This document shows, piece by piece, positions 2,041 through 54,741 of a DNA stretch of 64,000 nucleotides (positions are counted from its first letter, which is position 1; each line of letters begins with the position of its first letter). The notes below the pieces were generated by a model. The model made no database searches. It saw only the letters and a program-made list of their open reading frames with translations, and was not told the origin of the DNA. Position numbers and translations under genes: made by a program. This DNA comes from Chloropicon primus (Eukaryota), in the NCBI GenBank assembly GCA_023205875.1, contig CP060765.1, positions 1 through 64,000 on the forward strand, read 5' to 3'.

Positions 2041-4353
2041 TTACCTCCGTCCGTCCTCAACACAGACATTTGACACACTGCTGCCGAACCCACCATCCTT
2101 TTGGGGTTTGTCCCGTACATCCAAGATGACTTTGGCAAACATGGTCCTTGCCAGCTTTTTCTGGACGTGGCTCTCTGATACCATTTGAGGGAGGAGGACT
2201 TTCATCCTCTTCCGGTGTCGGAACATCTGGATCCCAACGAAACCAACCAGGCCGAGCAAAGCGTATCCAACCAGGCTCACGACCACGCCATATGCTTTTT
2301 CAAGCTTCGTCTTCCTGCTGTAGCCAAATCGATAACGAGCAACCTCATTTCTGTACTTCTCAGAAGCAAGGAGCCATCGCTCGAACAATGGGTCGTTGTC
2401 GTAAACATTGAGCAGCAGACCTACCATGTTAAGCTCAAGGCCACTAGGCCGCTGTTCTGGCAGGTCTTCTGCCTGGCAAGGACATGCCGGGCAAGGACAA
2501 TTGATGTCCTCGCCCCCTTCGTCCTCTTTTTCTATTTTCCTTGTGTCCAAATGTTCTGACACAACGGGAACGAGCGAGCAAGCGGGCTTCTCGGGGAGCA
2601 TGTGAGCAGCGGCGCTACACCACATCAAATCCGGTCCCCAAGAGAGCGTCTGATCCAGGAATTCATCAGTCAAAACACCTTCAAAGAACCATGCTGCAAA
2701 GTCGCCTTCTAGCAAAGCAAAATACTGCTCGATGAACCCGGAGGCAAGCGGTTCAACGGATTCGAAGTCTGTGGCATTTGCCGCCGATTTCCAGTACCTG
2801 GCCTCGTGCAGTTGGTACCACTGTCGACCAGGAGCCTTCCGTCTCCTCCAATTCATGAGCGACTCGCCAACCGCCTCCCTCAGCGGTCCGGATATTACGG
2901 ACCCTCCTTTCTTTTCCATAAAGGCGTTCCAAGGAAACCCAGCGATTCTCATATCTGCGTCTTTCATCAGAACGTAATCGTACTCTCCCATTTGCCGCAC
3001 CAGGGGCTTCATGAATGCGTACTTGTTGAACCTGGCAGAGCTGCTCGTGTATCGGACCATGGGCTCCAGATCACCTCGCTCCACCAGCCCCCGAAGCTTC
3101 TCAGCAAAGGCCGTCTTCAGATTTGTTCTCACGACAAAGTTCACCTTCCACTTGCTGCATGGGTTCCACTGTGAGAGGGCTCGCATGTCGGACTCAAGTG
3201 TCGCAATGTCGTCGTTCAGCTGCTCTTCTGTCTTTATCAGACAGTTCGAAAGGACAAGGATGCACTCTTTTCTGGGTGTGATCCGCGCCATGTCCACGTT
3301 CGAGGCTTGAAGCAAAGCCGTGATTTTGTTATTCACGTCCGCTGATTCGACTGTCGAGTCAACGTCGTAGTCGTGTTGAATGCCCAGCGTTCTGGTAGCA
3401 GTGTAAGTCCTTCCAGCAAGAGCGTAGAGCAACTCATCTGCAATCACCATGTCGTCACCAAAGTACCAATCAGCAGAAGCATCGCTCTGCACCCCGCGCA
3501 AGATCCTCTCTATGCCCTCCCGGTTGACCATGTACGCCTGAGTTCCCCAGTGTCCAGGCATCCAGCTGATCCAAGGGTCTTGGTAATGGAAAGACGCGTT
3601 CACCACCACGGGATTGTTGGTGTACCACTGCAGTACTGTCCAGTCCGGAGGAGCCATAGCTGCGTACCACTCCCAAGTCTCCAGGAAGCTTGCCGGTACA
3701 GAAACGTCGTCTTCGAGGATCAGGGCAAGCTCAGAATTGTCGTCGTACGCTCTCTTGATTGCTGTCAGGTGAGACAAGGCGCAAGCAAACTGACCCTCGG
3801 TGTACTCGTTCCTGAGATTCAACTCCCGGGTCTCCTCCTCGGCGCCCGGCGGTGCGGCGGCAAGGCCTTCCTTCAGCTCGACGCGCCCGAGCCGAAGCAT
3901 GTCTCTGACTGCCTCCGCATCAATGCCTGGAACCCGAGTGGATCTGACAGTCGGAAAAGACGCCGCAGCGGACTTGAGCATGGTTTCCATGCTTGCTCTT
4001 CTCCCCACAGACTCGTCCAGGTTGATCCAGTAGATGTCCAGACCACCCCTCTGTGGACTCCGCGACGCGATACGTTGCCGACTGCCTTCGCCACCACGGG
4101 CTTCCTCGTCGACGGCGGGCTGCGCACTGAGCGCCACGCCTGGCCCCGTCCAAAGACTCCGGGACGGCCAGACCTCGTCGCCGTTGTTGCTGTTCCCCTT
4201 CCCCTTCCCCTTGCCCTTCCCCCGCTCCTCTAACGCGTTGCCGGGCCCGTGAACGCCCCACAGAACAAGCGGCAAGGACAAGAGCACGCAAAGAAAGCAC
4301 GCACCGAGCAAGACCTTACGCGTCCTCGTGCCGCGCATCGTGGCACGTCTCAT
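2041..4353 (-). CDS. Membrane-anchored glycosyltransferase family 25-like protein with an additional C-terminal domain
   Basis: 770-aa ORF; N-terminal TM; GT25 motifs IYWINLD..RR, ACALSH, LILEDD and GTQAY; C-terminal TM. Confidence 0.8.
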   Translation of the reverse strand: MRRATMRGTRTRKVLLGACFLCVLLSLPLVLWGVHGPGNALEERGKGKGKGKGNSNNGDEVWPSRSLWTGPGVALSAQPAVDEEARGGEGSRQRIASRSPQRGGLDIYWINLDESVGRRASMETMLKSAAASFPTVRSTRVPGIDAEAVRDMLRLGRVELKEGLAAAPPGAEEETRELNLRNEYTEGQFACALSHLTAIKRAYDDNSELALILEDDVSVPASFLETWEWYAAMAPPDWTVLQWYTNNPVVVNASFHYQDPWISWMPGHWGTQAYMVNREGIERILRGVQSDASADWYFGDDMVIADELLYALAGRTYTATRTLGIQHDYDVDSTVESADVNNKITALLQASNVDMARITPRKECILVLSNCLIKTEEQLNDDIATLESDMRALSQWNPCSKWKVNFVVRTNLKTAFAEKLRGLVERGDLEPMVRYTSSSARFNKYAFMKPLVRQMGEYDYVLMKDADMRIAGFPWNAFMEKKGGSVISGPLREAVGESLMNWRRRKAPGRQWYQLHEARYWKSAANATDFESVEPLASGFIEQYFALLEGDFAAWFFEGVLTDEFLDQTLSWGPDLMWCSAAAHMLPEKPACSLVPVVSEHLDTRKIEKEDEGGEDINCPCPACPCQAEDLPEQRPSGLELNMVGLLLNVYDNDPLFERWLLASEKYRNEVARYRFGYSRKTKLEKAYGVVVSLVGYALLGLVGFVGIQMFRHRKRMKVLLPQMVSESHVQKKLARTMFAKVILDVRDKPQKDGGFGSSVSNVCVEDGRR

Positions 4354-4613
4354 CGAGACCTACGTACGTCTTCCCCCTTCGTCGGCAGGCTGCCGACGAG
4401 TAACGCTCGCCCTCGCTCCTTCAAAGGCGGGGGTTTCGGCCGTTCCATTCCAATCCCACTCTGGTGGGGCGATACGGTAGGATCACGAGAAGGGGGGGGG
4501 GGTGGGGCGGGCGCGTCAGGAAGTGCGAGGCTAAGCTCAGTTGAAAACATATGGAGAGTATACATATCGAGCAACGTAAGGCCCTAACTTAGTGGCACTA
4601 AGCGGCAGCTAAG

Positions 4614-5678
4614 TTAATTGCAGCACTGGAGCCCAATCTCGTCAACGAGATGTCTGCAAGTTGGCTCTGCGTCAATGGCAGCCTCGACGGCGCTGCTGCA
4701 GGCGCCGCACTCTCTTCTCGAGCGTTTAGTACCGAATGCTTTCCTATTCTCTCGTTCCGCAACCTCGTCGTTTGTCACAAAGTTCTCGTTCACTAACTTT
4801 TCCAAAGCATTCCTGTCCGACTTGACCCCCATGAAATTGTGAACCTTAAGGATGACATTGAGAGTGTCGGTCACAAGGTCCTGGTATCGCACCACGAGGT
4901 ATCGTCCCTCGTATTGATTAGCATCTCCATCGCCCATAATCGCATCGTGGTTCGTCTTAGTCTCCGCACAAAGCTCGTGCAATCCCGGGTACGAACTCCA
5001 TTGGAGAAGGTGCTTAATTTTGTTGATGCTTTCATACACCTCGTGCGGGTGGCGGATGAGGTGGATAATGCGCAGGTTCTCGTACCGATCCAGAGCATAT
5101 TTCATCGCCGTCTCCATTCTAATGACCTTGGTGCCAACAATGGGAGCATGCCGGCAAGCACTATCAAACGCCCCAAGGATCTCCGCGGGCCTTGCCGACT
5201 TGAGGATCTCCTCGGGCCTTGCCGACTTGAGGTCGTTGGGAAGGTGAAGCCAGCTCGGCAGACCCTCTACGAACATTCTGATGAGGAACCAGTCCGAGGC
5301 CACCTTGGGGGGGATGTCTGACTTCGCCATGGTCTCGTACGCCTCGCAATCGAACAACATAGCCATGATATTATCCGTTTTCTCGACGGGAGTTCCCGTC
5401 GCGTTCTTGAAGGGCCAGAGTGGCTCATCAAAGTACACGAACCCTTCGACCGAGCGAAAGAACAACGACTCCGCCACCGTCGATCCAGAACGCCCGTGCG
5501 ACGCCAGAACCACAACCTCCCTATTCGCGTAGCCTTTCACCGCGCTTTCGGAGGGACCAGCCTGCAACGCACGTGGCCGGCCCTCCTTGCCGCTAAAGGA
5601 AGCGAACCCCCAATAGCTGTGCAGCAAAAACAGGCACATGCATGAAATCAAAACCCAAAGCAACCTTTCCGAAACCAC
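4614..5678 (-). CDS. Golgi-type carbohydrate sulfotransferase (true start uncertain; an upstream exon is possible)
   Basis: N-terminal TM; PAPS-binding loop GRSGST; YFDEPL; IHLIRHP..V..S; VRYQDLV. A ttttag acceptor-like site lies just upstream of the ORF start. Confidence 0.8.
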   Translation of the reverse strand: MVSERLLWVLISCMCLFLLHSYWGFASFSGKEGRPRALQAGPSESAVKGYANREVVVLASHGRSGSTVAESLFFRSVEGFVYFDEPLWPFKNATGTPVEKTDNIMAMLFDCEAYETMAKSDIPPKVASDWFLIRMFVEGLPSWLHLPNDLKSARPEEILKSARPAEILGAFDSACRHAPIVGTKVIRMETAMKYALDRYENLRIIHLIRHPHEVYESINKIKHLLQWSSYPGLHELCAETKTNHDAIMGDGDANQYEGRYLVVRYQDLVTDTLNVILKVHNFMGVKSDRNALEKLVNENFVTNDEVAERENRKAFGTKRSRRECGACSSAVEAAIDAEPTCRHLVDEIGLQCCN

Positions 5679-5904
5679 CCTAAAATCCTTCCTAACCCCT
5701 CACATCCCTGCTTGTGCGATGCCGTCAACGTCACGTCACTATCGAATCAAGCCAAAGCGCTCCCGTCGCCTTCAGCCGTTTGGTTTTACCTTCGCTCGCC
5801 CCAGGTAGGAGATGACATCGTTTGGTTTGGGTGTCCAAAGAGGGACGGAGGTGTTAAGACCTGCTTCTATTCTGTAGTACACGTCGTATTTCAAAACAAA
5901 ACAA

Positions 5905-7056
5905 TCAAGCTTCCTGCCGGGGCGCGGTTCTCGGCGGTGTGTCAAGGATGCGGAAATAGTTGTACAGTGCGACCCCGCTGATGACCATGAGGATGCCGCC
6001 CACGCTCGAGGCAACCACCGCGTTGCCAAAGTACAGGATGCTGATGAAGATCATGAGCGTGCGCTTCAATGTGTTTGCGACGCTCTGCGTGACGGGGGAC
6101 ACGAGGGCCATCGTGCAGTACGCCGACACGGACTGCATGTGGAAGAACACCGCGCAAATGAGCACGTAAGCCGACACCTCCCAGCCAGCAGGTTTTGCTT
6201 CCGCTGTCGCTTCCAAGCTCGCGGATCTCTTGAGTTGCCACAGCATCACTGGCAGCTGGAAGAACGACCCCGCAACGGAGGTGAAGAACTGAAGTTGCAC
6301 CGGAGTCACGAGCGATTCCATCATCTTCTTCGAGAAGATGTTCTGGATGCAATCCAAAAAGGTGTTCAAGAGCGCCGCAAGGAAGCCCACCACGTGGAAG
6401 CTTATCTCGCTCGAGGCGCACAAGATGAGCCCGCCCATCACGGGAAAGAGAGACAGGAACACGGGAAGGGAGGTCCGCTCGCCCAGAATCAGCCAAGCGA
6501 ACAGCACGGTCGCCAAAGGGGCCGAGGCTTTGATCGTCTCCGTGAAGCTCGCAGCCACGTAGGAGAGACTGACCAGCCCGAGGACGACCGTGCTGACTCG
6601 GAGAGCCCCAAGAAGAACCATGTAATTCCAAAATTGAGGCTTCCGCATCAACTTCCCCACGGAGGAGTCGAGCTGCTGGTCAGACTGGTCCCCCTCCGGC
6701 CAATCGCTGCGCTCCTCTTCCGTCCTTCCCCTGGGACTCTCCTCGTCCCCAATGGGGTAACTGGACCTCTTCCGCTTGATTCTCGCGTTCTTCCACAGCT
6801 TGATCCTCCTCGCTTCGGGGCCAAGGACCTTGATGGCCCCAAACAAGGCCGTCACCGACATCTGCACCAGCCCTATTCCGACGGGGGTGCACCCCTTCTC
6901 GGAAAGCAGCGTCTTCACCATGAGGAGGTTTACCAGGGAGCACACGTACCAGGTGGACAGCCAGAACGAGACCTGGGCGACATACTTCCACTCCTCTCTG
7001 CTCCTCGCACGAGGCAACCTGTCGAGGCAAAGGAGCCCCATGCAATTAAGCCCCAT
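5905..7056 (-). CDS. Triose-phosphate/nucleotide-sugar transporter family protein (SLC35E-like)
   Basis: Multiple TM helices; VAASFTETIKASAP and SPVTQSVANTLKR; first ATG at 7056 (upstream in-frame sequence is low complexity). Confidence 0.85.
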   Translation of the reverse strand: MGLNCMGLLCLDRLPRARSREEWKYVAQVSFWLSTWYVCSLVNLLMVKTLLSEKGCTPVGIGLVQMSVTALFGAIKVLGPEARRIKLWKNARIKRKRSSYPIGDEESPRGRTEEERSDWPEGDQSDQQLDSSVGKLMRKPQFWNYMVLLGALRVSTVVLGLVSLSYVAASFTETIKASAPLATVLFAWLILGERTSLPVFLSLFPVMGGLILCASSEISFHVVGFLAALLNTFLDCIQNIFSKKMMESLVTPVQLQFFTSVAGSFFQLPVMLWQLKRSASLEATAEAKPAGWEVSAYVLICAVFFHMQSVSAYCTMALVSPVTQSVANTLKRTLMIFISILYFGNAVVASSVGGILMVISGVALYNYFRILDTPPRTAPRQEA

Positions 7057-7403
7057 CCTCCCCTTGTCTCGTCTCGTTCGTTCCCGCGCGATGCCACGAC
7101 CCACGTCTCTCCAAGTTCTCCCCCGGGCGTTCCTTTCGCTCCCTCTCCCTCTCCCTCTCCCTCTCCCTCTCCCCTCCTCTCCCTCGCTGCCGCCGGGCGT
7201 TACCAGCGGGGCGCCCGTGGAGCGACGAGAATTGAGAATGAGAGTGAGATCCAATGCCCCCTCTGGCTGGCTGCTGGCCGACGAAGAGGAAGAGGAAGAG
7301 GAAGGCGGAGGGCGAGGGGGGTAGGAGGACGAGGACGAGGACGAGGACGAGGACAAGAACGTAACGCTGGACGGTGGGCGCTGGGCTAACTCGAGGAGAG
7401 GAG

Positions 7404-8822
7404 ATGGGGAGCGGTGGCTGGGTCCGGGGGAGGAGGAGGCGGATCGCAGCCGCGTCGGTTTTGGCTCTCGTGCTCTTGGCGGCGCTCCTGGTGGTCTTTC
7501 ACGCCGAGGACTCCATGGCGAAGAGGGGAGGGGCGAGGCTTGAGTGGGTCTCGACGACGTTGGAAGACCAACCTGCAGTGCGCTTCTTCCTCTACGAGGA
7601 CGTGCTCGAGGACTTTACCGCGCACTGCGAGATCAAGGACCGTTACGCCGCCAAGGGAGCCGAGGCGCTCTGGATCGAGCAGCTCGTCGACCACCCCTGG
7701 CGGACGCGCGACCCGGAGACGGCCGACCTCTTCGTGATCCCGGCGAACTTCTACGCGGCTCACACGGGTTGGTGCCGGAAGACGCCCGAGGAGTTCCTGC
7801 GGACGACGTCCCGGACGCTGGAGGGCAGCGATTGGTTCCACAGGTCGGCAGGGAGGGACCACGTCATCCTCAGCACATACTTCGAGTCGTGGCGCCAGAT
7901 CGAGAGGCTTCCCAAGTTCAGGAACATGATCTGGCTCTCCAGGATGTCGGGCGGGTGGACGTGGCATCACCCCAAGGCGCGGTGCGCGGTCGCGGTGATG
8001 CATAACGGCCCTCCGCCGCGACCGAGGCGCGACCGGAATGCCACGCACCGGCACACCCTCTTCTTCGTTGGCCAGGCGGACGCAAGGCGGGCATACCGGC
8101 TCCGCGTGGCGACGATCAAGTCCTTGGGCGACGTTGACGGGGGCCGGGGCGACAACTTTGTCGTCGGGACCAACCCTGGCGGCAAGGTCGACCCTGAGAA
8201 GAAGTTTGGAATCCCGTACTGTGAGTCGAGTCAGTCGACCGGTTGCTACTTGGCGGTGCGTCTCACCCACAAGAGATTCATGAAGGAGCTCACAGGCAGC
8301 CGGTGGAACTTGTTCGTCGGCGGAGACGATCCTGGGAGTGCCCGGTTCGCGGAGGTGAGTCTCTCTCTTGTTCACATCGTTTTCATGTCATCAAGCACTG
8401 ACTGACTCCTTTCACTTGGTGTCAAGGCGGCCTCCGTGGGGGTTCCGAGCATCATTATCAGCCCCGGAGTCGAGTCTTACCTCAGTTTCAAGGACCGCAT
8501 CCCGTGGAGAAACTTCACCGTGATCGTTGACCCTTCCTCTTTCCTGGCTCATCCCAAGGAAACCATTGGGGAAGTGCTGAGGAGATACGACGACGACGAG
8601 ACGAGGGATCGGATGGTGGCACTACAGGACCAGTACTCGCGGGAGTTCCTGTGGGGCCACCCGGAGAGCAGGGTCGCCACCAACGCCCTCGCCGAGGCAG
8701 CACGCGAGTGCCTGTTCAGCGACAATCAAAAGCGATTCCATTCGTATCCCTTCGCTCTCCAAATCTACCTTTTTGTCTTCATCATGATCATAATCCTCGC
8801 CGCGATACCTTTTGGATTGTAG
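7404..8822 (+). CDS. Exostosin-family (GT47) glycosyltransferase, 2 exons (7404-8354, 8427-8822)
   Basis: RTRDPETADLFVIP and WFHRSAGRDHV; GTGAGT...AAG intron 8355-8426 joins GDDPGSARFAE to AASVGVPSII...LSFKDRIPW in frame. Confidence 0.85.
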
Positions 8823-44255: not shown

Positions 44256-47200
44256 ATGAGGCGCGGGACGAGCGACAGGGGAAGGTCCCTCTTCCTCTTC
44301 CTCTTCCTCTTTCTCTTTCTCTTGCTTTTCTTTTTTTGCGTCGCCGTCGTCGAAACGGCTGGAGTGGTGGAGGTTGAGGTCTACACCAACGCGGAACAAG
44401 GAGGAGTGGATGGGATCGGTGGAGAGGATGGAGGACATCCTCCTCCTCCGCCGTACTTTGGTTCGGTCGATCTGCTGATACGTAACGGGGGTTCTTCCTC
44501 CGTGGACCTCGGTGATCTCACCGCGCACTTCTTCCTCGGTGAGGACCCCTCGAACGCGCACAAGTACGACGGTTTGGTTTGGAGTGCCCTGAGGGAGACT
44601 CGCGAAGGGAGCTTCGACTTTGTGGAGGACGTGGAGGTAACGTTCACGGAGTGCCATGGGAACGCGACGTCCTGGTCCGCGGAAGCGGGGGCGAGGGTGC
44701 GCATGGACATCGCCTTTGGGAAAAGCCAACACCTTCCTCCCGCGTCTAGGGCCCTCGTGAGGACGAGGGTGACCAAGAGGGTGTGGCCGCGCGAGCCGCT
44801 GGACGATGTGTCTCCATGGTCGCATCTCCGTGAGCTGGCGAGTCCTGTCGTCTTCTCGGCCTTGGACTCCAACCAAGAAAGCATGGTGCACTTTGCCGAG
44901 AACAGGAGGGTCGTGCTGAGCGACGGCAGCGGGAAAATCCTGTGGGGGCACTACCCGTCGGGGTATGATGCCGCCAGGAGCTCCGGCGAGGAGCTGTGCG
45001 GGATGAAGAGGGGGGGCGGCACCTCCAGGAAGACCGTCGCGAATTATGCGAGGAGGAGTCTGCTGCAGAACTTCGCGCAGGAGGTGTACCTGCAGGAGTT
45101 TTCCCTGCCTTGCGAGGACATCGGGAGCGTGATCCGGATGGATTCGAGGTTTGACGAGTCGTTGCCTCAGCTTCAGTACGTGAAGCTGCTCATTTCGAAC
45201 GAAGGGGAAGCGCCAGCGAGTCTTGACGGCCTGAGGATCCCCTTCCCCTACAGGGAGCTTGGCGAGGAGCACAAGCTTGTCGCGGCATGCACCAACCCGG
45301 TGTTGCTCGGCTCGAGCATGACGAACGCTTGGAGCGACGACATCTGTGACCACATCGACATCACTGTCTCTGAGGACGAGTTCGTCGTCGAGTTCAAGAA
45401 CTTCACGCTCTGTCCGTACTGCAGAATCGACGCGTTTTCCGACGCCTTGTCCCTGTTTGCTGTGTACGATGAGCATTGGCAGCGGGTGCAGATTGAAGTT
45501 ACCCTGGGAGCCTCCAGCTGCGCGTCGTCTGGCAGCGTGGTCTCTGACCCTTCCGCGCACATGTCGACGCTTTCGGTCAATCGCGTGAAGATGGACCCCG
45601 GCAACTGCCACACCATGCTCAATGTGCATTACGGCGGAACCATCCTGAGCAAGCCAGAACTCAAAGCAAGTTCTGCGACCGAGTGCTGCGATCTTTGCCA
45701 CAAGGAGCCCACTTGTAACGTTTGGACCTGGTGTGACAGTTTGATCGGATGCTCGAATGGAGAGGAGGACAAGTGTGTGCTCAAGTATGAGGTGGAGCTC
45801 GAGCCAACAATTTTGAGCAAGGGCAAATACACGCCCTGGGCATCGGGCTACTTGGGGTTGACCCAAGAGCCTATGCGCGCACCGCCAACAACAGTTTCAC
45901 CAACGTACACCTCGATCACGTCGTCATGCACGTCTGAGATCTCGGGCTTGGCAGCGGCTTGTACGAACGGCAACATGGCGTCCTCGATGAGTGTATCCCA
46001 GTGCTGCCAGAGGATTGCCGAGACAGACAGCATGTGCTTGTGCAACAAAGATTTTGGGTTTGAGATGGCTGCGATGCAGGAATCTCTCGAGACTTTTTCT
46101 GAGAGTCAGTGTAGCCACATTCCCTGCGCCAGCAGTGCAATCGCTGCACCAATACAGCAGAAGTCTTTGGCAGGGTCTCCATTGTCCAGAAAGAGCGGTA
46201 CCGCCGCACAAGGACAGCAGGGGCAGCCTGCCAAATCCCAAGCCCAGGGCCGCGCGCCCTTGCTCCCCCCAAACTGCGGTTTGGAAAACATCAAGACCGA
46301 TCTCGTCATGGAAAGCAACAGCAATTACAACAAGATCTTCTTGGTGGGATCTCTGACCAACACCGCAAGGAGGAGCGTGACGCTCGGCGACTTCACGGTC
46401 CCTATATTCTTCAGCAGGGGCGCCAAGGGCTACGACAACAAGTGGTACAGGGCAAATCCAGATGAATTTGTGGTGGAATGCAAAGATCCTGTGATCACTA
46501 CGACCCAGTTTGGCACCGTCGAACGAAGGCGCATGAGTTGCGACAACATGAAGGTCACAGTTGACGAAGAAGGAATCCTTTTCATGCTCCGCGGCGTGGA
46601 GCTGTGCCCTGGATGCTCCATCGGAGGTTCACAAGAGATGCCTATGTGGGAGATCAGGCACGCTGCCAACTTTCCTTTGGACTTCATCCATATCAACCCA
46701 GCCTTGGCATCCAACGGCCCAATCATTGGGAAACCTTTCTGCGACACTTTTGAAGACAGTTTGGAGATTCAGGAGGCCCTTGAGATGAATCCCATGGATA
46801 TGAACGTCCAGCCCCAGGAAATTTCGGACCAGGTGTGGAGGGAGCCCTCCGACACCAATACTGCCCAAGATCTTCTGCTCGGTACTCCCACAAGCGCAGG
46901 AGGTTTGGCTGGCTCAGAACCGGGCATCGGCAATGCCGCTGCGCTCAATGTTGGGCAAAAACCGTATCAGACTGTGACCCCGGATCAGCTGCGGCTGCTT
47001 GCTCCCGGGCAAGCTGCCATGCTGCTTAAGGACATGCACCCAGCTGCGGCAGCTCAAGCTCTGGCTGGACTGCAGCCACAAGAGGCCATTCCCATTTTGC
47101 AAGCGATGTCTCCCGCTGACGCTGGGAAAATCGCAGATGCAATGCCAGGCCCAGATGTCGCTGACTTGCTGAGGTACATGCAGCCAAATGCTGCATCTCA

Positions 47201-50200
47201 GCTTGTGGCAGCAATGTCTCCCGTGGTGGCAGCGAGTGCCTTGCAGCAGCTTCAGCCTCAGCAAGCTCAGGCCATCCTTTCATTGGTGGATAACCAGCAT
47301 GCCACTAGGTTACAGAACGCGATGCCTCCAGCTTCCGCGAGTCCAGGCAGATTGTCAAGACTGCCACCTGCTCAGGCGGCAGCCTTGCTCCAGCAATTGT
47401 ACCCAGCTCAGGCCGCCGCGGCACTGAGGGGACTGACGCCTGCCCAGGCAGCTGCGATACTCGAGGTCATGCCCCCGGAGGATGCTGCCCAGATCATGGA
47501 TGTGATGCCCGGCGGGGCTGCTGCTGACTTGCTTGGGGCGATGGATCCGTACGCCGCCCAGCAGCTGTTTAGCAATATGTCTCCCGTTGTGAGTGCCGAT
47601 GCTTTGAGGCAGATGCCTCCGGAGAAAGCCAGTGCTTTGATGACTTCGACGTCTACTCCAAGTTCAAGACAACCCATAGGAGCAGGAACGCCCATAGTCA
47701 CATCGCAACAGCTTGCTGCGATGAGTCCGGCACAAGCGGCCATGGCGCTGAGGGGAATGAGTCCCATGCAAGCTGCTGAGGCCCTTGCCGGTCTCGAGCC
47801 ATGGCGGGCTGCCCCCATTTTGCAAGCACTATCTCCAACGGACGCTGGTCCAATCATGGATTCCATGCCCGGAACAGAAATTGCTGGCATACTGAGGTAC
47901 ATGGATCCTGCGGAAGCAGCAGCGCTTTTGGAGCAGATGTCTCCCGTGGTGGCAGCGAGTGCCTTGCAGCAGCTTCAGCCTCAGCAAGCTCAGACCATAT
48001 TGGGCCTCATGGACAACAGGGACGCTACGAGGTTGCAGAATGCGATGCCTCCAGCTTCCGCGAGTCCTTTGAGACTTTCGCGGATGAGCCCAGCACAAGC
48101 CGCTACCTTGCTCCAGCAATTGTACCCAACTCAGGCCGCCGCGGCACTGAGGGGACTGACGCCTGCCCAGGCAGCTGCGATACTCGAGGTCATGCCCCCG
48201 GAGGATGCTGCCCAGATCATGGATGTGATGCCCGGCGGGGCTGCTGCTGACTTGCTTGGGGCGATGGATCCGTACGCCGCCCAGCAGCTGTTTAGCAATA
48301 TGTCTCCCGTTGTGAGTGCCGATGCTTTGAGGCAGATGCCTCCGGAGAAAGCCAGTGCTTTGATGACTTCGACGTCTACTCCAAGTTCAAGACAACCCAT
48401 AGGAGCAGGAACGCCCATAGTCACATCGCAACAGCTTGCTGCGATGAGTCCGGCACAAGCGGCCATGGCGCTGAGGGGAATGAGTCCCATGCAAGCTGCT
48501 GAGGCCCTTGCCGGTCTCGAGCCATGGCGGGCTGCCCCCATTTTGCAAGCACTATCTCCAACGGACGCTGGTCCAATCATGGATTCCATGCCCGGAACAG
48601 AAATTGCTGGCATACTGAGGTACATGGATCCTGCGGAAGCAGCAGCGCTTTTGGAGCAGATGTCTCCCGTGGTGGCAGCGAGTGCCTTGCAGCAGCTTCA
48701 GCCTCAGCAAGCTCAGACCATATTGGGCCTCATGGACAACAGGGACGCTACGAGGTTGCAGAATGCGATGCCTCCAGCTTCCGCGAGTCCTTTGAGACTT
48801 TCGCGGATGAGCCCAGCACAAGCCGCTACCTTGCTCCAGCAATTGTACCCAACTCAGGCCGCCGCGGCACTGAGGGGACTGACGCCTGCCCAGGCAGCTG
48901 CGATACTCGAGGTCATGCCCCCGGAGGATGCTGCCCAGATCATGGATGTGATGCCCGGCGGGGCTGCTGCTGACTTGCTTGGGGCGATGGATCCGTACGC
49001 CGCCCAGCAGCTGCTGAACAACATGTCTCCTCTCGTGCGCGCCAATGCACTGAGGCATTTAGGCAATCCAAGCGCGGCTGGGGATCTTGCAGGGCAGGAT
49101 GGTCGATTTGGGCAAATACAGAATGACGGTGAGGTACCTATAGTGGATGCGTCTGCGATACACCTTTTTGATATCGAGAAAGCACAGCAGATAGGCACGC
49201 CGATGGACCTGAATGGCCTGACACAGCAAGAGAAGGACGCTTTGCTAGCCGAGCTCTTAGCAAGGGCTGGAAGGCCTGTTGGTTCCGTTGCCGAACAAAT
49301 AGATGTGGCAGTGGCCAACTCCGATCCCGTGACTCTTCCTCCTGGGGCGTTGGACGAACAAGCAAACGCAGAGGAAGAGGGCATCCTCATTGAGTTCTCA
49401 AGATGGGCCAAAAAGAGTGATTTGTGGGAAAAGGCTGACGCGTCAGAGTTTGAACTTTCGTCGCCAGACTACGTGCAGGGGGAAGCTGTGCTGGTTGATA
49501 GAGAAGATAGCATCGAGGCAAGACTCCCCACGAAAGTGAAATCGGTTACGCTGAAGCACAAATTGGATGCAGAGCTTGACCCTCGTACTCCCACTATTTC
49601 TACGGCGAGCGGCGAGGACTACGAGGCAGTGCTTATGGAGGATGCCACCCTGTGGCTCATTAAGGACGCCAGTTTCGACGACGTCGGGGATGCCATTGAT
49701 GGAGCCGAAGCTACTGGAATCGGTGGTGGTAAAGATGACACGGTGAGGCTTGTGAGCGACGTTTCACCCTTGCAGGCTGCGAGAGTTCTCGATTCGGTGG
49801 ATGATGCTCTCGCGGCCGACATCCTGGCGGAGATGCCCCTTGAAGATATTGCGAGGGTCATCGCATTGCTGCCTGCGGACAGAGCAAAAAGGCTGATCGA
49901 GCTGTTGCCTAAGGACAGGCAAGAGGAGCTGATCCCGTTGCTGGATGGGGTGGACGCCATCGCGTTTGAAGCCATAGCCGATTTCATGCCTTGCGAGTCT
50001 GAAAAATTCCAAGTGAGTTTGAGAAGCAAAGTGCTGAACGGGGGCACGCGGTATGGGATCACGGGGACCATCGAGAACCCCACCAATCAAACGCTTTCTC
50101 TCAAGGGCCTGGAGATCAGAGTTGGGCTCAGTCCCTGGGTGAAGGATGCCACTGGAGTGTGGGAGCGAGCCGATAACGCGGATTACACCGTGCGCTGTGC

Positions 50201-50783
50201 GTGGCTTGGGATCGGATCGGTGAACTTTTGTGACACGGCCAGCGTTGTGATGGAAAACCACACGGCTGTAATCACGCTTCAAGGCCAGCTCAGGGCCGGG
50301 GAGAAAGTCAGCGGGCCTCCTGACGGAATTCTCATGGAGGTTGGAAGGAGGGGAAGAGCCCTGGACTTGAAGAATTTGCCCCTGATCGGCGTCGCTTGCC
50401 CCGGCCAGGAGGTAGGCCAGAGCATGTCGAGGTTTGAAGCTGATCAGGTAGGCGCTGGAGACTTGGTGACAATCGATTTCTCGCCCTGGATGAGGGCCGC
50501 GGGATCAAGCACCTGGCAGCGAGGCAGTGAGGACGAGTTTTCGTTGTCCTGCAAAAGCGGCGCGGATGCCTGCCCTGGTGTAGGCCAAGCAACTCTATCC
50601 ACGTCTTCCTCGGGCCAAGCACTGGAGGCTTCCTTTGTCGCGAGTGAGCCTGTGGACATCCTCCTTACCGCGAAAGACGGCTCGGAGCTCGACTTCAGAG
50701 AGCCCATTGTCACGAGCGGGTTCGACGCTTCGGCAAAACTGGTGAACAACGGGACAGCGTGGGATATTCAGCTGTCCAAGTAA
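44256..50783 (+). CDS. Large putative secreted protein with a PAN/apple-like Cys module and long MgtE-N-like helical repeats
   Basis: ~2175-aa ORF; hydrophobic N-terminus; SATECCDLCHKEPTCNVWTWC...CVLK; repeats such as DAAQIMDVMPGGAAADLLGAMDP. Confidence 0.75.
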   Translation: MRRGTSDRGRSLFLFLFLFLFLLLFFFCVAVVETAGVVEVEVYTNAEQGGVDGIGGEDGGHPPPPPYFGSVDLLIRNGGSSSVDLGDLTAHFFLGEDPSNAHKYDGLVWSALRETREGSFDFVEDVEVTFTECHGNATSWSAEAGARVRMDIAFGKSQHLPPASRALVRTRVTKRVWPREPLDDVSPWSHLRELASPVVFSALDSNQESMVHFAENRRVVLSDGSGKILWGHYPSGYDAARSSGEELCGMKRGGGTSRKTVANYARRSLLQNFAQEVYLQEFSLPCEDIGSVIRMDSRFDESLPQLQYVKLLISNEGEAPASLDGLRIPFPYRELGEEHKLVAACTNPVLLGSSMTNAWSDDICDHIDITVSEDEFVVEFKNFTLCPYCRIDAFSDALSLFAVYDEHWQRVQIEVTLGASSCASSGSVVSDPSAHMSTLSVNRVKMDPGNCHTMLNVHYGGTILSKPELKASSATECCDLCHKEPTCNVWTWCDSLIGCSNGEEDKCVLKYEVELEPTILSKGKYTPWASGYLGLTQEPMRAPPTTVSPTYTSITSSCTSEISGLAAACTNGNMASSMSVSQCCQRIAETDSMCLCNKDFGFEMAAMQESLETFSESQCSHIPCASSAIAAPIQQKSLAGSPLSRKSGTAAQGQQGQPAKSQAQGRAPLLPPNCGLENIKTDLVMESNSNYNKIFLVGSLTNTARRSVTLGDFTVPIFFSRGAKGYDNKWYRANPDEFVVECKDPVITTTQFGTVERRRMSCDNMKVTVDEEGILFMLRGVELCPGCSIGGSQEMPMWEIRHAANFPLDFIHINPALASNGPIIGKPFCDTFEDSLEIQEALEMNPMDMNVQPQEISDQVWREPSDTNTAQDLLLGTPTSAGGLAGSEPGIGNAAALNVGQKPYQTVTPDQLRLLAPGQAAMLLKDMHPAAAAQALAGLQPQEAIPILQAMSPADAGKIADAMPGPDVADLLRYMQPNAASQLVAAMSPVVAASALQQLQPQQAQAILSLVDNQHATRLQNAMPPASASPGRLSRLPPAQAAALLQQLYPAQAAAALRGLTPAQAAAILEVMPPEDAAQIMDVMPGGAAADLLGAMDPYAAQQLFSNMSPVVSADALRQMPPEKASALMTSTSTPSSRQPIGAGTPIVTSQQLAAMSPAQAAMALRGMSPMQAAEALAGLEPWRAAPILQALSPTDAGPIMDSMPGTEIAGILRYMDPAEAAALLEQMSPVVAASALQQLQPQQAQTILGLMDNRDATRLQNAMPPASASPLRLSRMSPAQAATLLQQLYPTQAAAALRGLTPAQAAAILEVMPPEDAAQIMDVMPGGAAADLLGAMDPYAAQQLFSNMSPVVSADALRQMPPEKASALMTSTSTPSSRQPIGAGTPIVTSQQLAAMSPAQAAMALRGMSPMQAAEALAGLEPWRAAPILQALSPTDAGPIMDSMPGTEIAGILRYMDPAEAAALLEQMSPVVAASALQQLQPQQAQTILGLMDNRDATRLQNAMPPASASPLRLSRMSPAQAATLLQQLYPTQAAAALRGLTPAQAAAILEVMPPEDAAQIMDVMPGGAAADLLGAMDPYAAQQLLNNMSPLVRANALRHLGNPSAAGDLAGQDGRFGQIQNDGEVPIVDASAIHLFDIEKAQQIGTPMDLNGLTQQEKDALLAELLARAGRPVGSVAEQIDVAVANSDPVTLPPGALDEQANAEEEGILIEFSRWAKKSDLWEKADASEFELSSPDYVQGEAVLVDREDSIEARLPTKVKSVTLKHKLDAELDPRTPTISTASGEDYEAVLMEDATLWLIKDASFDDVGDAIDGAEATGIGGGKDDTVRLVSDVSPLQAARVLDSVDDALAADILAEMPLEDIARVIALLPADRAKRLIELLPKDRQEELIPLLDGVDAIAFEAIADFMPCESEKFQVSLRSKVLNGGTRYGITGTIENPTNQTLSLKGLEIRVGLSPWVKDATGVWERADNADYTVRCAWLGIGSVNFCDTASVVMENHTAVITLQGQLRAGEKVSGPPDGILMEVGRRGRALDLKNLPLIGVACPGQEVGQSMSRFEADQVGAGDLVTIDFSPWMRAAGSSTWQRGSEDEFSLSCKSGADACPGVGQATLSTSSSGQALEASFVASEPVDILLTAKDGSELDFREPIVTSGFDASAKLVNNGTAWDIQLSK
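47210..49012 (+). repeat. Intragenic 723-bp (241-aa) tandem repeat, about 2.5 copies
   Basis: Identical alternative-frame ORFs offset by 723 (47408/48131; 47801/48524). Confidence 0.92.
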
Positions 50784-51107
50784 CGCCCCCCCCTCGGACC
50801 TTTGTGTACAACAACAAGATTTTTTTCCTTCTCTTATTGATATGAACTTTGCTTGTAGTCTATTAGAGATTCTTCTTCCTTGTTACTTGATGGTGATGGT
50901 GTATCAGCCGGGGAAGGGTGAAAGAAAGAGAGATGGGTTGGACAAGAAAACGTTAAATTCATATACGTTTCAATGAGCTTTGTTTTTTTTTTACACTAGG
51001 GCCTTAGGCGGCGGCCTCCTCCTCTTCTCCTTCAGGCTTTGGTTCTCCATCCTCTGCATCCTCCTTGGCATCCGCAGCAGTCTTTGCCTTTGCTTCCGCT
51101 TCCTCCG
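50673..51107. repeat. Left copy of a direct duplication (end of the large gene, intergenic region, 3' end of RSP3)
   Basis: aaagacggctcggagctcgacttcagagagc...cctccg matches 53309-53774 apart from small indels and substitutions. Confidence 0.95.
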
Positions 51108-51261
51108 ATTTTATCCGAAAAAATATCTTTGTTCCCCTTGAAAAAATAAGCGGCCGTGACACCCTGAAGCACTGGGCGGAGTCTGGCCCCATCAAAGTGA
51201 CATCCAGGCGGGAGGCAAAGGTCAGCGCTGGGCTCTAGGACGTAAACCGCGTGGCATTCGG

Positions 51262-52839
51262 ATGAACGCTACTGCCGGCTCGCTCGGCGTCCACGACGCG
51301 GGCGGTGCGACGGATTTTGGCGCAGGTTTGAGCCTCGAAGGTGCGCGTGACAAAGCAAAGGAGGCGCTGCTCCAGTGGGAGATCGAAGTCTGCGCCGTCG
51401 CGGTGCTCATGTCAAAAAAGGGCCTGCGGGTTGTCGACGAGAGCCGCCGCCACCTAGAACTCCTCCCCCCAGATCGCTATGGGACGATCTCGTACTGGGC
51501 CAAGTGGGCGTGTGGCACGGCGCAGTTGTCGATGGCCGCTAAGATCTTCACACAAGCCGAGCTCGACGTGGAGCTCGGTGGCAGCGAGGGTGCGATGAAT
51601 GAGACCTCGCTCGGTCTGGTCCAGCCGGAATCACGGCGCTTCTCCGTCGGCGCCCACGTCCGCGTGCGCTCCGAGGCCGACTCTGTGCGTTGGCGCCGGC
51701 CGCATCTACGGACGCCTGGCTACGTCCACGGCGCGTGTGGTGTCATTGTGCGCGCCCAGGGCCCCTTCGCCAACCCGGAGGAGGTCTCCTTCTACAGTCA
51801 AGGGCCACGGAGGACCGATGCCCTCCTCTACACGGTGCGCTTCCTCCAAGCGGAGTTGTGGCCGCACTACACCGGTGGAGAGGCGGACACCGTCGATGTG
51901 GACATCTTCGAAGGCTGGCTTGCCGACGCCGAGGCCGATGACGATGCCAATGCCGGCAGCTACGACGGTGCGCCGTCTCTGTGGCGCGGCCGCGGCTCGA
52001 GCCTCGTGCGCATTCGCACAGCGGATAGTCGGAAGGCGCGGCGTGTTGGCAATGCCCAAGGCCACGTGCATCATCACTCGAGGGAGGCCGTCGAGCGCGC
52101 GGCGGTCGATCGCGAGGCAGCGCACAACAACAGGGTGGACAAGGACGGAGCATTCGCCGCCCTGCACGCTGCGACGGTGCGGCTGCTCGTGGCCAAGGGC
52201 ATCCTCGCACGCGATGAGCTCCGCGCGATGGTCGAGACGTTGGATACCATGGCGTACGGCCAGACGATGGAGGGCGCCAAACTCGTCGCGCGCGCGTGGT
52301 GCGACGAGGCGTTCAAGGCCCTCCTGCTCACGGCTCCCGCCAAGGCCATCGAGGCGGCGGGGCTCACACAGATCGTCGACGCGCGCGGTGGCATCGGCTC
52401 GACGCGTGCAGGCATCGGTCACCTCGAGTACATGGGCACAGCCTCGCGCGGTGCTCCATCGCAGGCGCTTGCGCCGATTGGCGACACGGAGCTCGTGGTG
52501 GTCGAGAACACCGACGAGGTTCATAATCTCGTCGTCTGTACCTTGTGCTCCTGCTACCCGCGCGCGCTCCTCGGGTTGCCGCCACGGTACTTCACCTCGC
52601 GCGCGTACCGTGCGCGTGCCGTCTGCGAGCCGCGCGCCGTGCTGGAGGAATTCGGGTGCGCGTTACGGCCGTCGGTTACGACCGTCCGCGTGCACGACTC
52701 CACCGCAGACGTCCGCTTCCTCGTGCTCCCCCAGCGCCCTGCGGGGACGGAGGGATGGTCGGAGGAGGAGCTGAGGCCGCTCGCGACGCGGGACTGCCTC
52801 GTCGGTGTCGCGCTGCCGGTGGTGGGTGAGCAGCGGTGA
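51262..52839 (+). CDS. Fused beta-alpha nitrile hydratase, cobalt-type signature
   Basis: Beta: GVHDAGG, SYWAKW, RFSVG..VRV, HLRTPGYVHG. His linker GHVHHHS. Alpha: GAKLVARAW.D..FK, VENTDEVHNLVVCTLCSCYP, VHDSTADVRFLVLPQRPAGTEGWSEEEL. Confidence 0.95.
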   Translation: MNATAGSLGVHDAGGATDFGAGLSLEGARDKAKEALLQWEIEVCAVAVLMSKKGLRVVDESRRHLELLPPDRYGTISYWAKWACGTAQLSMAAKIFTQAELDVELGGSEGAMNETSLGLVQPESRRFSVGAHVRVRSEADSVRWRRPHLRTPGYVHGACGVIVRAQGPFANPEEVSFYSQGPRRTDALLYTVRFLQAELWPHYTGGEADTVDVDIFEGWLADAEADDDANAGSYDGAPSLWRGRGSSLVRIRTADSRKARRVGNAQGHVHHHSREAVERAAVDREAAHNNRVDKDGAFAALHAATVRLLVAKGILARDELRAMVETLDTMAYGQTMEGAKLVARAWCDEAFKALLLTAPAKAIEAAGLTQIVDARGGIGSTRAGIGHLEYMGTASRGAPSQALAPIGDTELVVVENTDEVHNLVVCTLCSCYPRALLGLPPRYFTSRAYRARAVCEPRAVLEEFGCALRPSVTTVRVHDSTADVRFLVLPQRPAGTEGWSEEELRPLATRDCLVGVALPVVGEQR

Positions 52840-53085
52840 ACAAGCGCACGATGTGAAGAAGTGGCAAGTGCAACGCGACCTCAGACCTCAGACCTCGCTC
52901 TTGCGCGGCGCATCCTCTACCTTGGTGGACCGTCATTGACCCAAGACCAAGGCAAGAGCCTGACATAACCGTAGACACCGTAGACAGAAGACAAGGACGG
53001 ATGCTGCTGTCTTGTGTGGAAGATGGATCTCGGCACGGGCGGGTGCTGGATATTGCATGATCCTATGACTCGCGTTGTCGTGTAA

Positions 53086-53308
53086 TCCTCAATCCTGCTT
53101 GGCGATACCTTGGTGATGTGCAAGGTTTCGACCGTATTTCACATGACGGTCATTACGTTTGAGGCGCCCGAGCTGGAAGACCCTGACCTCAGCTTCCAAT
53201 ACAAGCGGGTGGTGTCCACCGATCCTGGCGTCAAGACTTTCCAGACAGGGTATTCTCCAACCACCGGCCAATACGGCGAGCTGCTGAAAGGCACGGATGT
53301 CGGATGTC
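53086..53308 (+). mobile_element. Truncated Fanzor2/IS607-TnpB-like fragment (RuvC-I region only)
   Basis: KRVVSTDPGVKTFQTGYSP matches the recalled (V/I)xxDPGxRTFxTxY RuvC-I signature; the frame is cut at the duplication junction 53309. Confidence 0.7.
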
Positions 53309-53774
53309 AAAGACGGCTCGGAGCTCGACTTCAGAGAGCCCATTGTCACGAGCGGGTTCGACGCTTCGGCAAAACTGGTGAACAACGGGACAGCGTGGGA
53401 TATTCAGCTGTCCAAGTAACGCCCCCCCCTCGGACCTTTGTGTACAACAACAAGATTTTTTTCCTTCTCTTATTGATATGAACTTTGCTTGTAGTCTATT
53501 AGAGATTCTTCTTCCTTCCTTGTTACTTGATGGTGATGGTGTATCAGCCGGGGAAGGGGAAGGGTGAAAGAAAGAGAGATGGGTTGGACAAGAAAACGTT
53601 AAATTCATATACGTTTCAATGAGCTTTGTTTTTTTTTTACACTAGGGCCTTAGGCGGCGGCCTCCTCCTCGTCTCCCTCAGGCTTTGGTTCTCCATCCTC
53701 TGCATCCTCCTTGGCATCCTTGGCAGCCTCCTCGGTGGCCTTTTCCTCCGCAGCAGCCTTTGCTTCCTCCTCCG
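53309..53774. repeat. Right copy of the direct duplication
   Basis: Matches 50673-51107; supplies the functional 3' end of RSP3. Confidence 0.95.
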
Positions 53775-54741
53775 CCTTGGCCTTTGCGATAGCAGCCTTC
53801 CTGGCATCCTCTGCCTTCTGCTGAGCGTCCAGCTTCTTCTTGAGGGCAGCCGCGACAATGCTCTTGGCCGTGTTGTACGATACCTCCATGTTTCCGAGCT
53901 GGCTCTGGGTCTCAGCAAGAAGCCAAGGCAAGAAGGTGTCCTGGACCTCCTTCTCCACCGGATCGTAAAAGTGCCCAGCCTGGTGCAAGTCCGCGAAGAC
54001 GTCCTCCACGACAGTGTCGAGGAACCCACGGGCGAAGGAAGACGCAGCAACCTTCTGCCTGACCTGGCCTTCCCTCTCCAACCTCTGCTTCTCCTGCTCG
54101 ATCCGCCTCTGCTTCTCCTCCTCCTTGCGCTTCTCGGCCGCCTCCATCCTTTGGGTGGCAATAAGCTCGGCATTTCTGATCTGCTCGAAGTTCTCCTGGT
54201 GCGTCCTCATGGCCTCGAGTTCCTCCTCTTCCAGCACCTCCATGAGCCCCTGCTCAAGCGTCTTGCCAACCAGTACCTCCAGTATGGGCTCGACCTCCAA
54301 GTCAAAGTCAAAGATCTCGCCGCTCTCTATCTGGGTCTCCATGTCCACACCCGTCTTCATCGGGATGAACCTAGGAGTCGGGGGCCTGTCCAAGAAAGCA
54401 TCCGTCTGCGTCGAGATCTCTGCCTCAGGCACAGTATCTGTGAGCTCCTCCAAGTACGCGTCCGTCTGTATATCCATGTGCCTCCTGCCGTCAATAGGCT
54501 CCGGAGTGCTCGCCCGCTTCAAAGTCTGGACGACTTTCTTGGGACGGCCAGTCGTCTCCATCAGGGGCTCCGCGGGGAGGATCTGTGCGGCGTACGTGTT
54601 TCCCCTCACAACACGGCGGTCAAACATTATGTTCGAAGGAATTCCACCCGGTTCATCACTCTCGCGGTACTTGGGCCTCCTGCGCGTGCGCACAGGCTGC
54701 GGCTCCGCCGCGTAAGCATACGTCTCCGTCGCAACAACCAT
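53650..54741 (-). CDS. RSP3: Flagellar radial spoke protein 3
   Basis: NIMFDRRVVRGNTYA; TPEPIDGRRHMDIQTD.YLEEL; TQTDAFLDRPPTP; FDFDLEVEPILEVLVGKTLEQ. Confidence 0.96.
   Translation of the reverse strand: MVVATETYAYAAEPQPVRTRRRPKYRESDEPGGIPSNIMFDRRVVRGNTYAAQILPAEPLMETTGRPKKVVQTLKRASTPEPIDGRRHMDIQTDAYLEELTDTVPEAEISTQTDAFLDRPPTPRFIPMKTGVDMETQIESGEIFDFDLEVEPILEVLVGKTLEQGLMEVLEEEELEAMRTHQENFEQIRNAELIATQRMEAAEKRKEEEKQRRIEQEKQRLEREGQVRQKVAASSFARGFLDTVVEDVFADLHQAGHFYDPVEKEVQDTFLPWLLAETQSQLGNMEVSYNTAKSIVAAALKKKLDAQQKAEDARKAAIAKAKAEEEAKAAAEEKATEEAAKDAKEDAEDGEPKPEGDEEEAAA

Follow-up and report, generated by a model that had tools for sequence, protein, structure and literature searches.

A fragment of about 50 codons in the genome of Chloropicon primus raises the question of how a piece of an RNA-guided nuclease gene came to lie between two host genes. 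The window analyzed here is the 64,000-nucleotide stretch at the start of contig CP060765.1 (assembly GCA_023205875.1). It is gene-dense and opens on a telomeric repeat array (1-592); a subtelomeric tandem repeat, about 198 bp in size, extends from there to position 1091. A subtelomeric cluster of genes for a GT25 glycosyltransferase, a sulfotransferase, and a TPT-family transporter together with a GT47 gene occupies 2041-8405.

Identity and extent of the remnant

The frame from 53110 reads PELEDPDLSFQYKRVVSTDPGVKTFQTGYSPTTGQYGEL, and the peptide quoted for it in the original prediction is present at the position given there. About 50 residues around the RuvC-I aspartate, comprising the end of the wedge region and RuvC-I, are encoded by 53155-53306 on the forward strand; the DPG motif lies at 53221-53229 and the codon of the catalytic Asp at 53221-53223. 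An exhaustive phmmer search of 1.84 billion proteins with the peptide yielded 42 matches at E<=0.001, far beyond chance. Thirty of the 42 bore the TnpB domain PF07282 or PF12323, nine had no TnpB Pfam domain, two came from the remnant's own locus, and one, the top match P0143, was discarded as a repeat artefact. The peptide alone had no match in PDB, Pfam, NCBIfam, a word-indexed protein search, or IMG/VR, and its relatives were thus found solely by the exhaustive phmmer search. A family profile, built from 24 near-full-length relatives, scored the remnant frame at 73.9 bits, a value that is partly circular because the relatives in it were found with the peptide. At the DNA level, the remnant is 75-82% identical to its four nearest loci (L009, L010, L011, and L022) over 131-146 bp, starting from 53155.

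The left boundary did not survive the analysis: the demonstrable remnant covers 53155-53306, not 53086-53308 as originally drawn. Upstream of 53155, the best protein frame was equalled or beaten by 111 of 300 shuffles, and the DNA by 57-269 of 500. BLAST and HMM alignments stretch in the remnant frame, through a stop, to about 52984-53005, and this extension was dropped as it was not significant when scored alone. The shifted frame WRYLGDV...ISHD, which had been proposed as degenerate wedge sequence, does exist, but it scores -5.9 bits and falls outside the family-profile matches. On the other hand, the right boundary at 53308 is exact, as a host repeat starts at 53309, and the remnant stops at 53306-53308, flush with the right junction of a 2.2-kb insert (see below). 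The Fanzor frame is lost at this junction in a 7-bp perfect tandem duplication (53294-53307, forward strand), which may represent filler at the junction or, alternatively, a frameshift of one base.

Within the family, DPG is found at RuvC-I in 121 of 133 proteins, a glutamate six residues before the zinc finger (E-x6-CxxC) in 132 of 133 full-length relatives, and RuvC-III in 121 of 133. DPG and the shifted RuvC-II glutamate are Fanzor signatures according to the accessible part of the preprint by Yoon et al. The remnant possesses the DPG at RuvC-I; truncation of the gene has removed the shifted RuvC-II glutamate and the following RuvC-III from the window. Profile and DNA comparisons with the relatives agreed with the prediction that RuvC-II/III and the zinc finger are absent, and the right end of the element is likewise missing. 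Furthermore, four of 49 residues are present in less than 2% of 129 relatives, two of them at columns conserved at 97% and 74%. Altogether, the phmmer relatives, the family profile, and the likelihood placement described below bear out the original identification: the remnant is a real, dead fragment of a Fanzor2/IS607-TnpB gene around RuvC-I and encodes no working nuclease. RNA-guided DNA cleavage by the fragment is excluded by its anatomy as predicted from the sequence.

Class and relatives of the Fanzor2 family

The best match of the family profile in PDB was mimivirus L79 (9b0l) at 5e-40, and the other 17 of the 18 matches were at 2e-13 or weaker; no chain named Fanzor1 was found among the 18. 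By this profile comparison, Fanzor2 is thus closer to the family than either Fanzor1 or the usual bacterial TnpB. In the Atlas, both cyanobacterial and Nucleocytoviricota clusters are among the neighbours of P0199. The Asp column of the remnant corresponds to residue 324 of 9b0l when counted by hand along the profile alignment, and D324 was mutated as catalytic in the portion of Jiang et al. (PMC10530073) available to us. In the likelihood placement of the 49-residue fragment, the best nine of 55 branches all lay in or at the clade of L010, L011, P0199, P0214, and P0207 and fell within 2.1 lnL of each other, while the next best branch was 14.1 lnL away. A FastTree run placed the fragment near the outgroup, at odds with this result; that position was set aside, as it was rejected in the likelihood placement (p-AU 0.024).

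The metagenomic clade amounts to 198 clusters at E<=1e-10 among 7998 scored. L009, L010, L011, L022, and P0190-P0299 belong to this clade, which is large and consists of IS607-Fanzor2 elements that look intact and have their right end conserved. A look through one published Fanzor table, in which long cells are shortened, did not reveal the RuvC-I motifs of the clade. A match to a TnpA profile directly upstream of the Fanzor gene was detected in 30 of 80 metagenomic loci (not deduplicated; 12 of them had seeded the profile) and in 16 of the 36 loci with more than 800 bp upstream; a Pfam Resolvase domain was confirmed upstream in L036 and L011. No TnpA was detected in the window (best domain E=0.059). 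In L010 (1901-2371) and L011 (1933-2406), TnpA consists of the C-terminal half and overlaps the start of the Fanzor gene, as is also the case in L026, L029, L045, L061, L065, and L066. The elements with half a TnpA are probably non-autonomous, having lost the N-terminus of the recombinase.

L009, L010, L011, and L022 have about 110 nt in common after the stop codon and then diverge, so that the four copies share a right end but differ in their flanks. Three of the four end in GG; the core used by IS607 is GG. Such a shared right end with differing flanks is what would be expected of mobile IS607 copies with a right-end RNA. The fold of the ~110-nt stretch is weakly supported, with a z of -1.96 and a two-sided change in none of 37 pairs. 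DNA comparison with the relatives found no omegaRNA-type right end in the window, nor were defined IS607 ends seen there; instead, the insert is bounded by a 401/411-bp repeat.

C. primus is already known to possess Fanzors, namely 25 IS605-like proteins in the accessible part of PMC6731263 and two orthogroups of 30 and 28 entries in File S1 of PMC12301720. Its Fanzor2* genes sit in transposons with terminal inverted repeats (TIRs) and 5-bp target duplications, as described in the available sections of PMC10711439 and of the Yoon et al. preprint, respectively. The suggestion that the remnant implies a Fanzor family in the genome or in the donor consequently fits on the donor side, while the resident family is a different, published clade (PMC6731263 and PMC10711439, as far as their accessible parts go). 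An origin of the remnant by decay of a member of the resident family is highly improbable, even though there are 25-30 such genes per C. primus strain (PMC6731263, in part; PMC12301720 File S1) and the DPG core is common to both. By eye, the resident proteins match about 18 of the 29 residues around DPG and L010 matches 24, and the resident proteins are devoid of the upstream FEAP..EDPD stretch. All nine Chloropicon rows of the Yoon supplement share one RuvC-I region different from that of the remnant, and no terminal inverted repeat pair was found at the insert ends. The remnant is spanned by a single uninterrupted contig in DNA run X1, and at 85% likeness no other contig lies partly on the remnant or on the 5-kb stretch around it (the filter drops some records); no other copy at least 85% alike was found among the contigs of this run. 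We thus regard descent from the published Fanzor2* family as largely refuted by these sequence comparisons.

A nitrile hydratase insert between two host genes

The 2.2-kb insert is flanked by a host direct repeat of 401 and 411 bp (50673-51073 and 53309-53719), the copies of which differ by two substitutions in 401 nt and two indels. The original prediction missed both the repeat and the foreign nitrile hydratase insert that it encloses, and these explain where the remnant lies and where it ends. The upstream host gene (44256-50783, forward strand) encodes a PAN domain and MgtE_N-like repeats, and the downstream gene (53650-54741, reverse strand) radial spoke protein 3 (RSP3; PF06098, E=5.6e-91). 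The upstream gene is 2175 codons long and contains internal 723-bp tandem repeats at 47091-49057. The first repeat copy holds the true 3' end of the upstream gene, the intergenic region, and a copied RSP3 tail, and the second copy a copied 3' end of the upstream gene, the intergenic region, and the true RSP3 tail; both host genes therefore remain whole. At the left junction (51074-51107, reverse strand), DNA comparison revealed an RSP3-tail-like stretch with gaps in multiples of three relative to the true tail. A 63-codon reverse-strand frame (51004-51195) ends in the duplicated RSP3 tail, has junction gaps in multiples of three, and shows no Pfam match. The insert then continues with a 5' flank (51108-51261, forward strand), in which RNA-like contigs start at 51131 and 51162. 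Neither the 5' nor the 3' flank of the insert had a match in the 82 fetched loci (best E=0.22).

The insert encodes an intact, intronless nitrile hydratase of 525 aa (51262-52839, forward strand; PF21006, PF02211, and PF02979). As in the eukaryote-type fusion, the beta subunit is 5' of the alpha subunit, and the metal-binding CxxCSC motif reads CTLCSC, which marks the cobalt type. The GC content of 0.676 and the CpG o/e of 1.25 are the highest of 17 long ORFs, marking the gene as foreign in composition. Its product is 66% identical to the Emiliania sequence (214 aa) and 70% to that of Phaeocystis (296 aa) but 36-51% to those of six chlorophytes; the closest protein, P0002, is 79% identical and has no taxon name. 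In the tree, the C. primus enzyme nests among haptophyte and unnamed marine sequences with a support of 0.986, and a grouping with chlorophytes was rejected by a delta lnL of 261 (27 taxa including six chlorophytes; fast trees, 5000 replicates). P0003, an 885-aa member of the haptophyte clade, carries an alpha/beta hydrolase domain (PF07859 and PF20434) in fusion with nitrile hydratase. We conclude that the nitrile hydratase is probably haptophyte-derived. File S1 of PMC12301720 assigns the gene to the orthogroups specific to C. primus. The word 'nitrile' is absent from the main text of either C. primus genome paper, and a full-text literature search found no paper joining Chloropicon and nitrile hydratase. 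The transfer thus appears to be unreported so far.

Between the nitrile hydratase stop and the remnant lies a 315-bp spacer (52840-53154, forward strand) with two short tandem duplications and no significant Fanzor similarity. Ungapped RNA-like contigs extend from the nitrile hydratase through the remnant (51131-53338 in X4 and 51162-53338 in X5), although the RNA nature of X4 and X5 is a guess, both could derive from the same data set, and contigs are no proof of one continuous transcript. The spacer is covered by both, and its part at 52907-53137 also by X6; it is likely the 3' UTR of nitrile hydratase. As the contigs run into the remnant, the latter probably lies within the 3' UTR as well, and the second repeat copy likely supplies the end of the transcript. 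An X5 contig at 53309-53429 fits either repeat copy.

The same region is covered by a spliced 72-aa hypothetical C. primus model, P0145, which shares its first 45 residues with the remnant; the label 'unannotated' was therefore correct in that the model is not named Fanzor, but not in the strict sense. The model is present in NCBI and has a GT...AG pair and an open frame. Nevertheless, this model, in which the remnant is spliced onto the copied tail of the upstream gene, is very unlikely to represent a genuine new protein. It forms a single-member cluster, conserved columns are mutated, and the RNA-like contigs of X4 and X5 run unspliced across it with no joint (contigs can drop rare forms). 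The locus number of P0145 is absent from the orthogroup supplement searched.

The foreign composition, and the flanking repeat as a natural point of misassembly, could also suggest an assembly artefact or a contaminant joined via the repeat, and the contigs of X1 overlap the right junction by 30 letters only. However, the depth of X1 is 132 over the insert against 130 and 153 over the flanks, and the left junction is bridged at 51107. In the marine metagenome X12, a 151-nt piece (53227-53377, depth 2) bridges the right junction with zero differences. Moreover, a second named C. primus nitrile hydratase protein (P0121) differs by two residues. We therefore consider an artefact extremely improbable. 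Zero-difference pieces of the insert were found in four marine or algal metagenomes. The nitrile hydratase gene has two substitutions in X1, X4, and X5, implying that a second allele exists. No joint of an empty site was listed in eight runs; an empty allele would share the same contigs via the collapsed repeat.

Route of arrival and comparison with known systems

The reading that we prefer, with a probability of roughly 0.6, is that the remnant is a fragment of an IS607-type Fanzor2 that was likely already dead when it came as a passenger on 2.2 kb of foreign DNA with the probably haptophyte nitrile hydratase. The remnant is best read as marking a recent alga-to-alga gene transfer. The insert would have been patched into a break between the two convergent host genes, with about 400 bp of host DNA duplicated. 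A duplication of this length is attributable to fill-in repair of a staggered break or to crossover of a circle, and either may have been the route here. No direct precedent for such integration with host duplication was found in a literature search. The junction would have cut off the rest of the Fanzor gene, and the fragment had presumably decayed in the donor DNA: the remnant is more decayed (4/49 residues) than the repeat copies (2 substitutions in 401 nt), which suggests that it was probably dead in the donor. This age argument is not firm, because gene conversion could keep the repeats alike and the left junction is more diverged. The remnant would now reside in the 3' UTR of an mRNA ending in the duplicated host 3' end, and the insert may have been retained for the enzyme, not for the remnant.

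The nitrile hydratase and the remnant differ in composition (GC 0.676 and 0.586; CpG o/e 1.25 and 0.84), and the spacer at 52840-53154 matches nothing identifiable, which fits separate capture as well. The haptophyte nitrile hydratase could have come alone, with the Fanzor piece captured separately (e.g., from a giant virus in the cell) as filler at the same break and decaying later. The nearest relatives of the remnant reside on giant-virus-like contigs, and three perfect 7-9-bp tandem duplications, one at the junction, were found in 469 bp, a density seen in none of 2000 shuffles. About 0.5 such duplications would be expected from host non-ORF DNA. The enrichment is mild, and short tandem duplications are common in the genome (18 in 16,348 non-ORF bases). 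The four private changes in 49 residues, set against near-identical repeats, point to decay before insertion unless conversion has been active. No nitrile hydratase was found beside a Fanzor of the remnant's clade in the 82 fetched loci, a weak test because the loci were fetched with the Fanzor. Overall, we find capture in two pieces doubtful, though it deserves weight; the identity of the remnant is the same under it, and the route alone differs.

The insert contains a transposon gene fragment, the close relatives of which are mobile (four copies with one right end and different flanks), and one could in principle read it as an IS607/Fanzor transposon that carried the nitrile hydratase as cargo and mobilized it by transposing itself. 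Nevertheless, the window bears neither TnpA nor an element end, and a host repeat of 400 bp flanks the insert, which terminates within a coding region. IS607 elements lack terminal repeats and do not require target duplications, according to the accessible part of PMC3673617. We accordingly give cargo transposition hardly any weight.

The intronless gene and the virus-like Fanzor clade point to possible viral carriage of the whole insert. A giant virus would have carried the haptophyte nitrile hydratase as an intronless captured auxiliary gene together with its own IS607-Fanzor2 and delivered both as one piece, a scenario that we consider unlikely at present. Pfam matches were obtained for 38 of the 253 flanking ORFs picked from the relative loci, and the families found were PolB, AEP_C962R, Erv1, PARP_regulatory, TBP, DHFR-TS, T5orf172, RING, and ankyrin; for the four nearest loci, ankyrins were the only family named among the neighbours. 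Neither a capsid nor a packaging ATPase turned up among the 253 ORFs. As the flanks mostly have no Pfam match, contain families typical of giant viruses, and show no capsid, 'giant-virus-like' is a description that we infer. The IMG/VR scans returned no relative of the Fanzor clade or of the nitrile hydratase, a search for a viral link of the flanking TBP gene gave nothing, and an Atlas search with one flank gene of L009 revealed a helicase fold without taxonomic value. A literature search for nitrile hydratase and giant viruses found nothing related. The sole full-length relative in the GTDB scan, L081, has TnpA and Fanzor between two RING-finger genes in a MAG labelled Methylococcus and is probably a misbinned viral or eukaryotic contig. 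Viruses have been proposed as IS607 vectors, as stated in the available part of PMC3673617. If viral carriage is true, the locus would represent virus-mediated transfer of a working enzyme for nitrogen scavenging from one algal kingdom to another, in which the fingerprint of the vector and the scar of integration can still be read.

Returning to the passenger reading, the remnant is worthless as a nuclease, and its value is that of a tracer of transfer. To our knowledge, it is rare for a recent eukaryote-to-eukaryote transfer to retain its two junctions along with non-coding DNA from the donor. Both can still be read at this locus, so that hypotheses on donor and mechanism can be put to the test. 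While Fanzors in C. primus were known already, a recent nitrile hydratase transfer with intact junctions is apparently unreported. The remnant further draws attention to a clade of considerable size in metagenomes, made up of IS607-Fanzor2 elements that look intact.

The enzyme resembles the eukaryote-type nitrile hydratase described by Marron et al. 2012 (PMC3323583, as far as its accessible part goes) in the beta-alpha fusion with a short His-containing linker, but it is intronless, whereas the E. huxleyi gene has five introns, and it groups with haptophytes instead of the green-algal clade. The remnant shares with Fanzor2* (Yoon et al. 2023, PMC10711439) the C. primus host, the Fanzor2 class, and the DPG core. 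It differs in that its relatives are TnpA-linked IS607 elements and that it resides in an insert with a 400-bp repeat, not in a transposon with TIRs and 5-bp duplications. Like the cases in the accessible part of PMC3673617, it is a sporadic IS607 piece in a eukaryotic genome of the kind for which viral vectors were proposed; unlike those described there, it lies in physical linkage with an intact metabolic gene that was itself transferred, and the scar of the integration is visible. Finally, in mimivirus Fanzor2 (L79, 9b0l; termed ApmFNuc in PMC10530073), the DPG aspartate D324 and the shifted RuvC-II glutamate E467 align with those of the remnant's family, and both are preceded by IS607 TnpA and followed by a right end that is non-coding and conserved, judging from the available part of that paper. 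In contrast to the mimivirus protein, the window retains about 50 codons at RuvC-I without another catalytic residue, TnpA, or guide RNA, and the family from which they derive constitutes a distinct clade.
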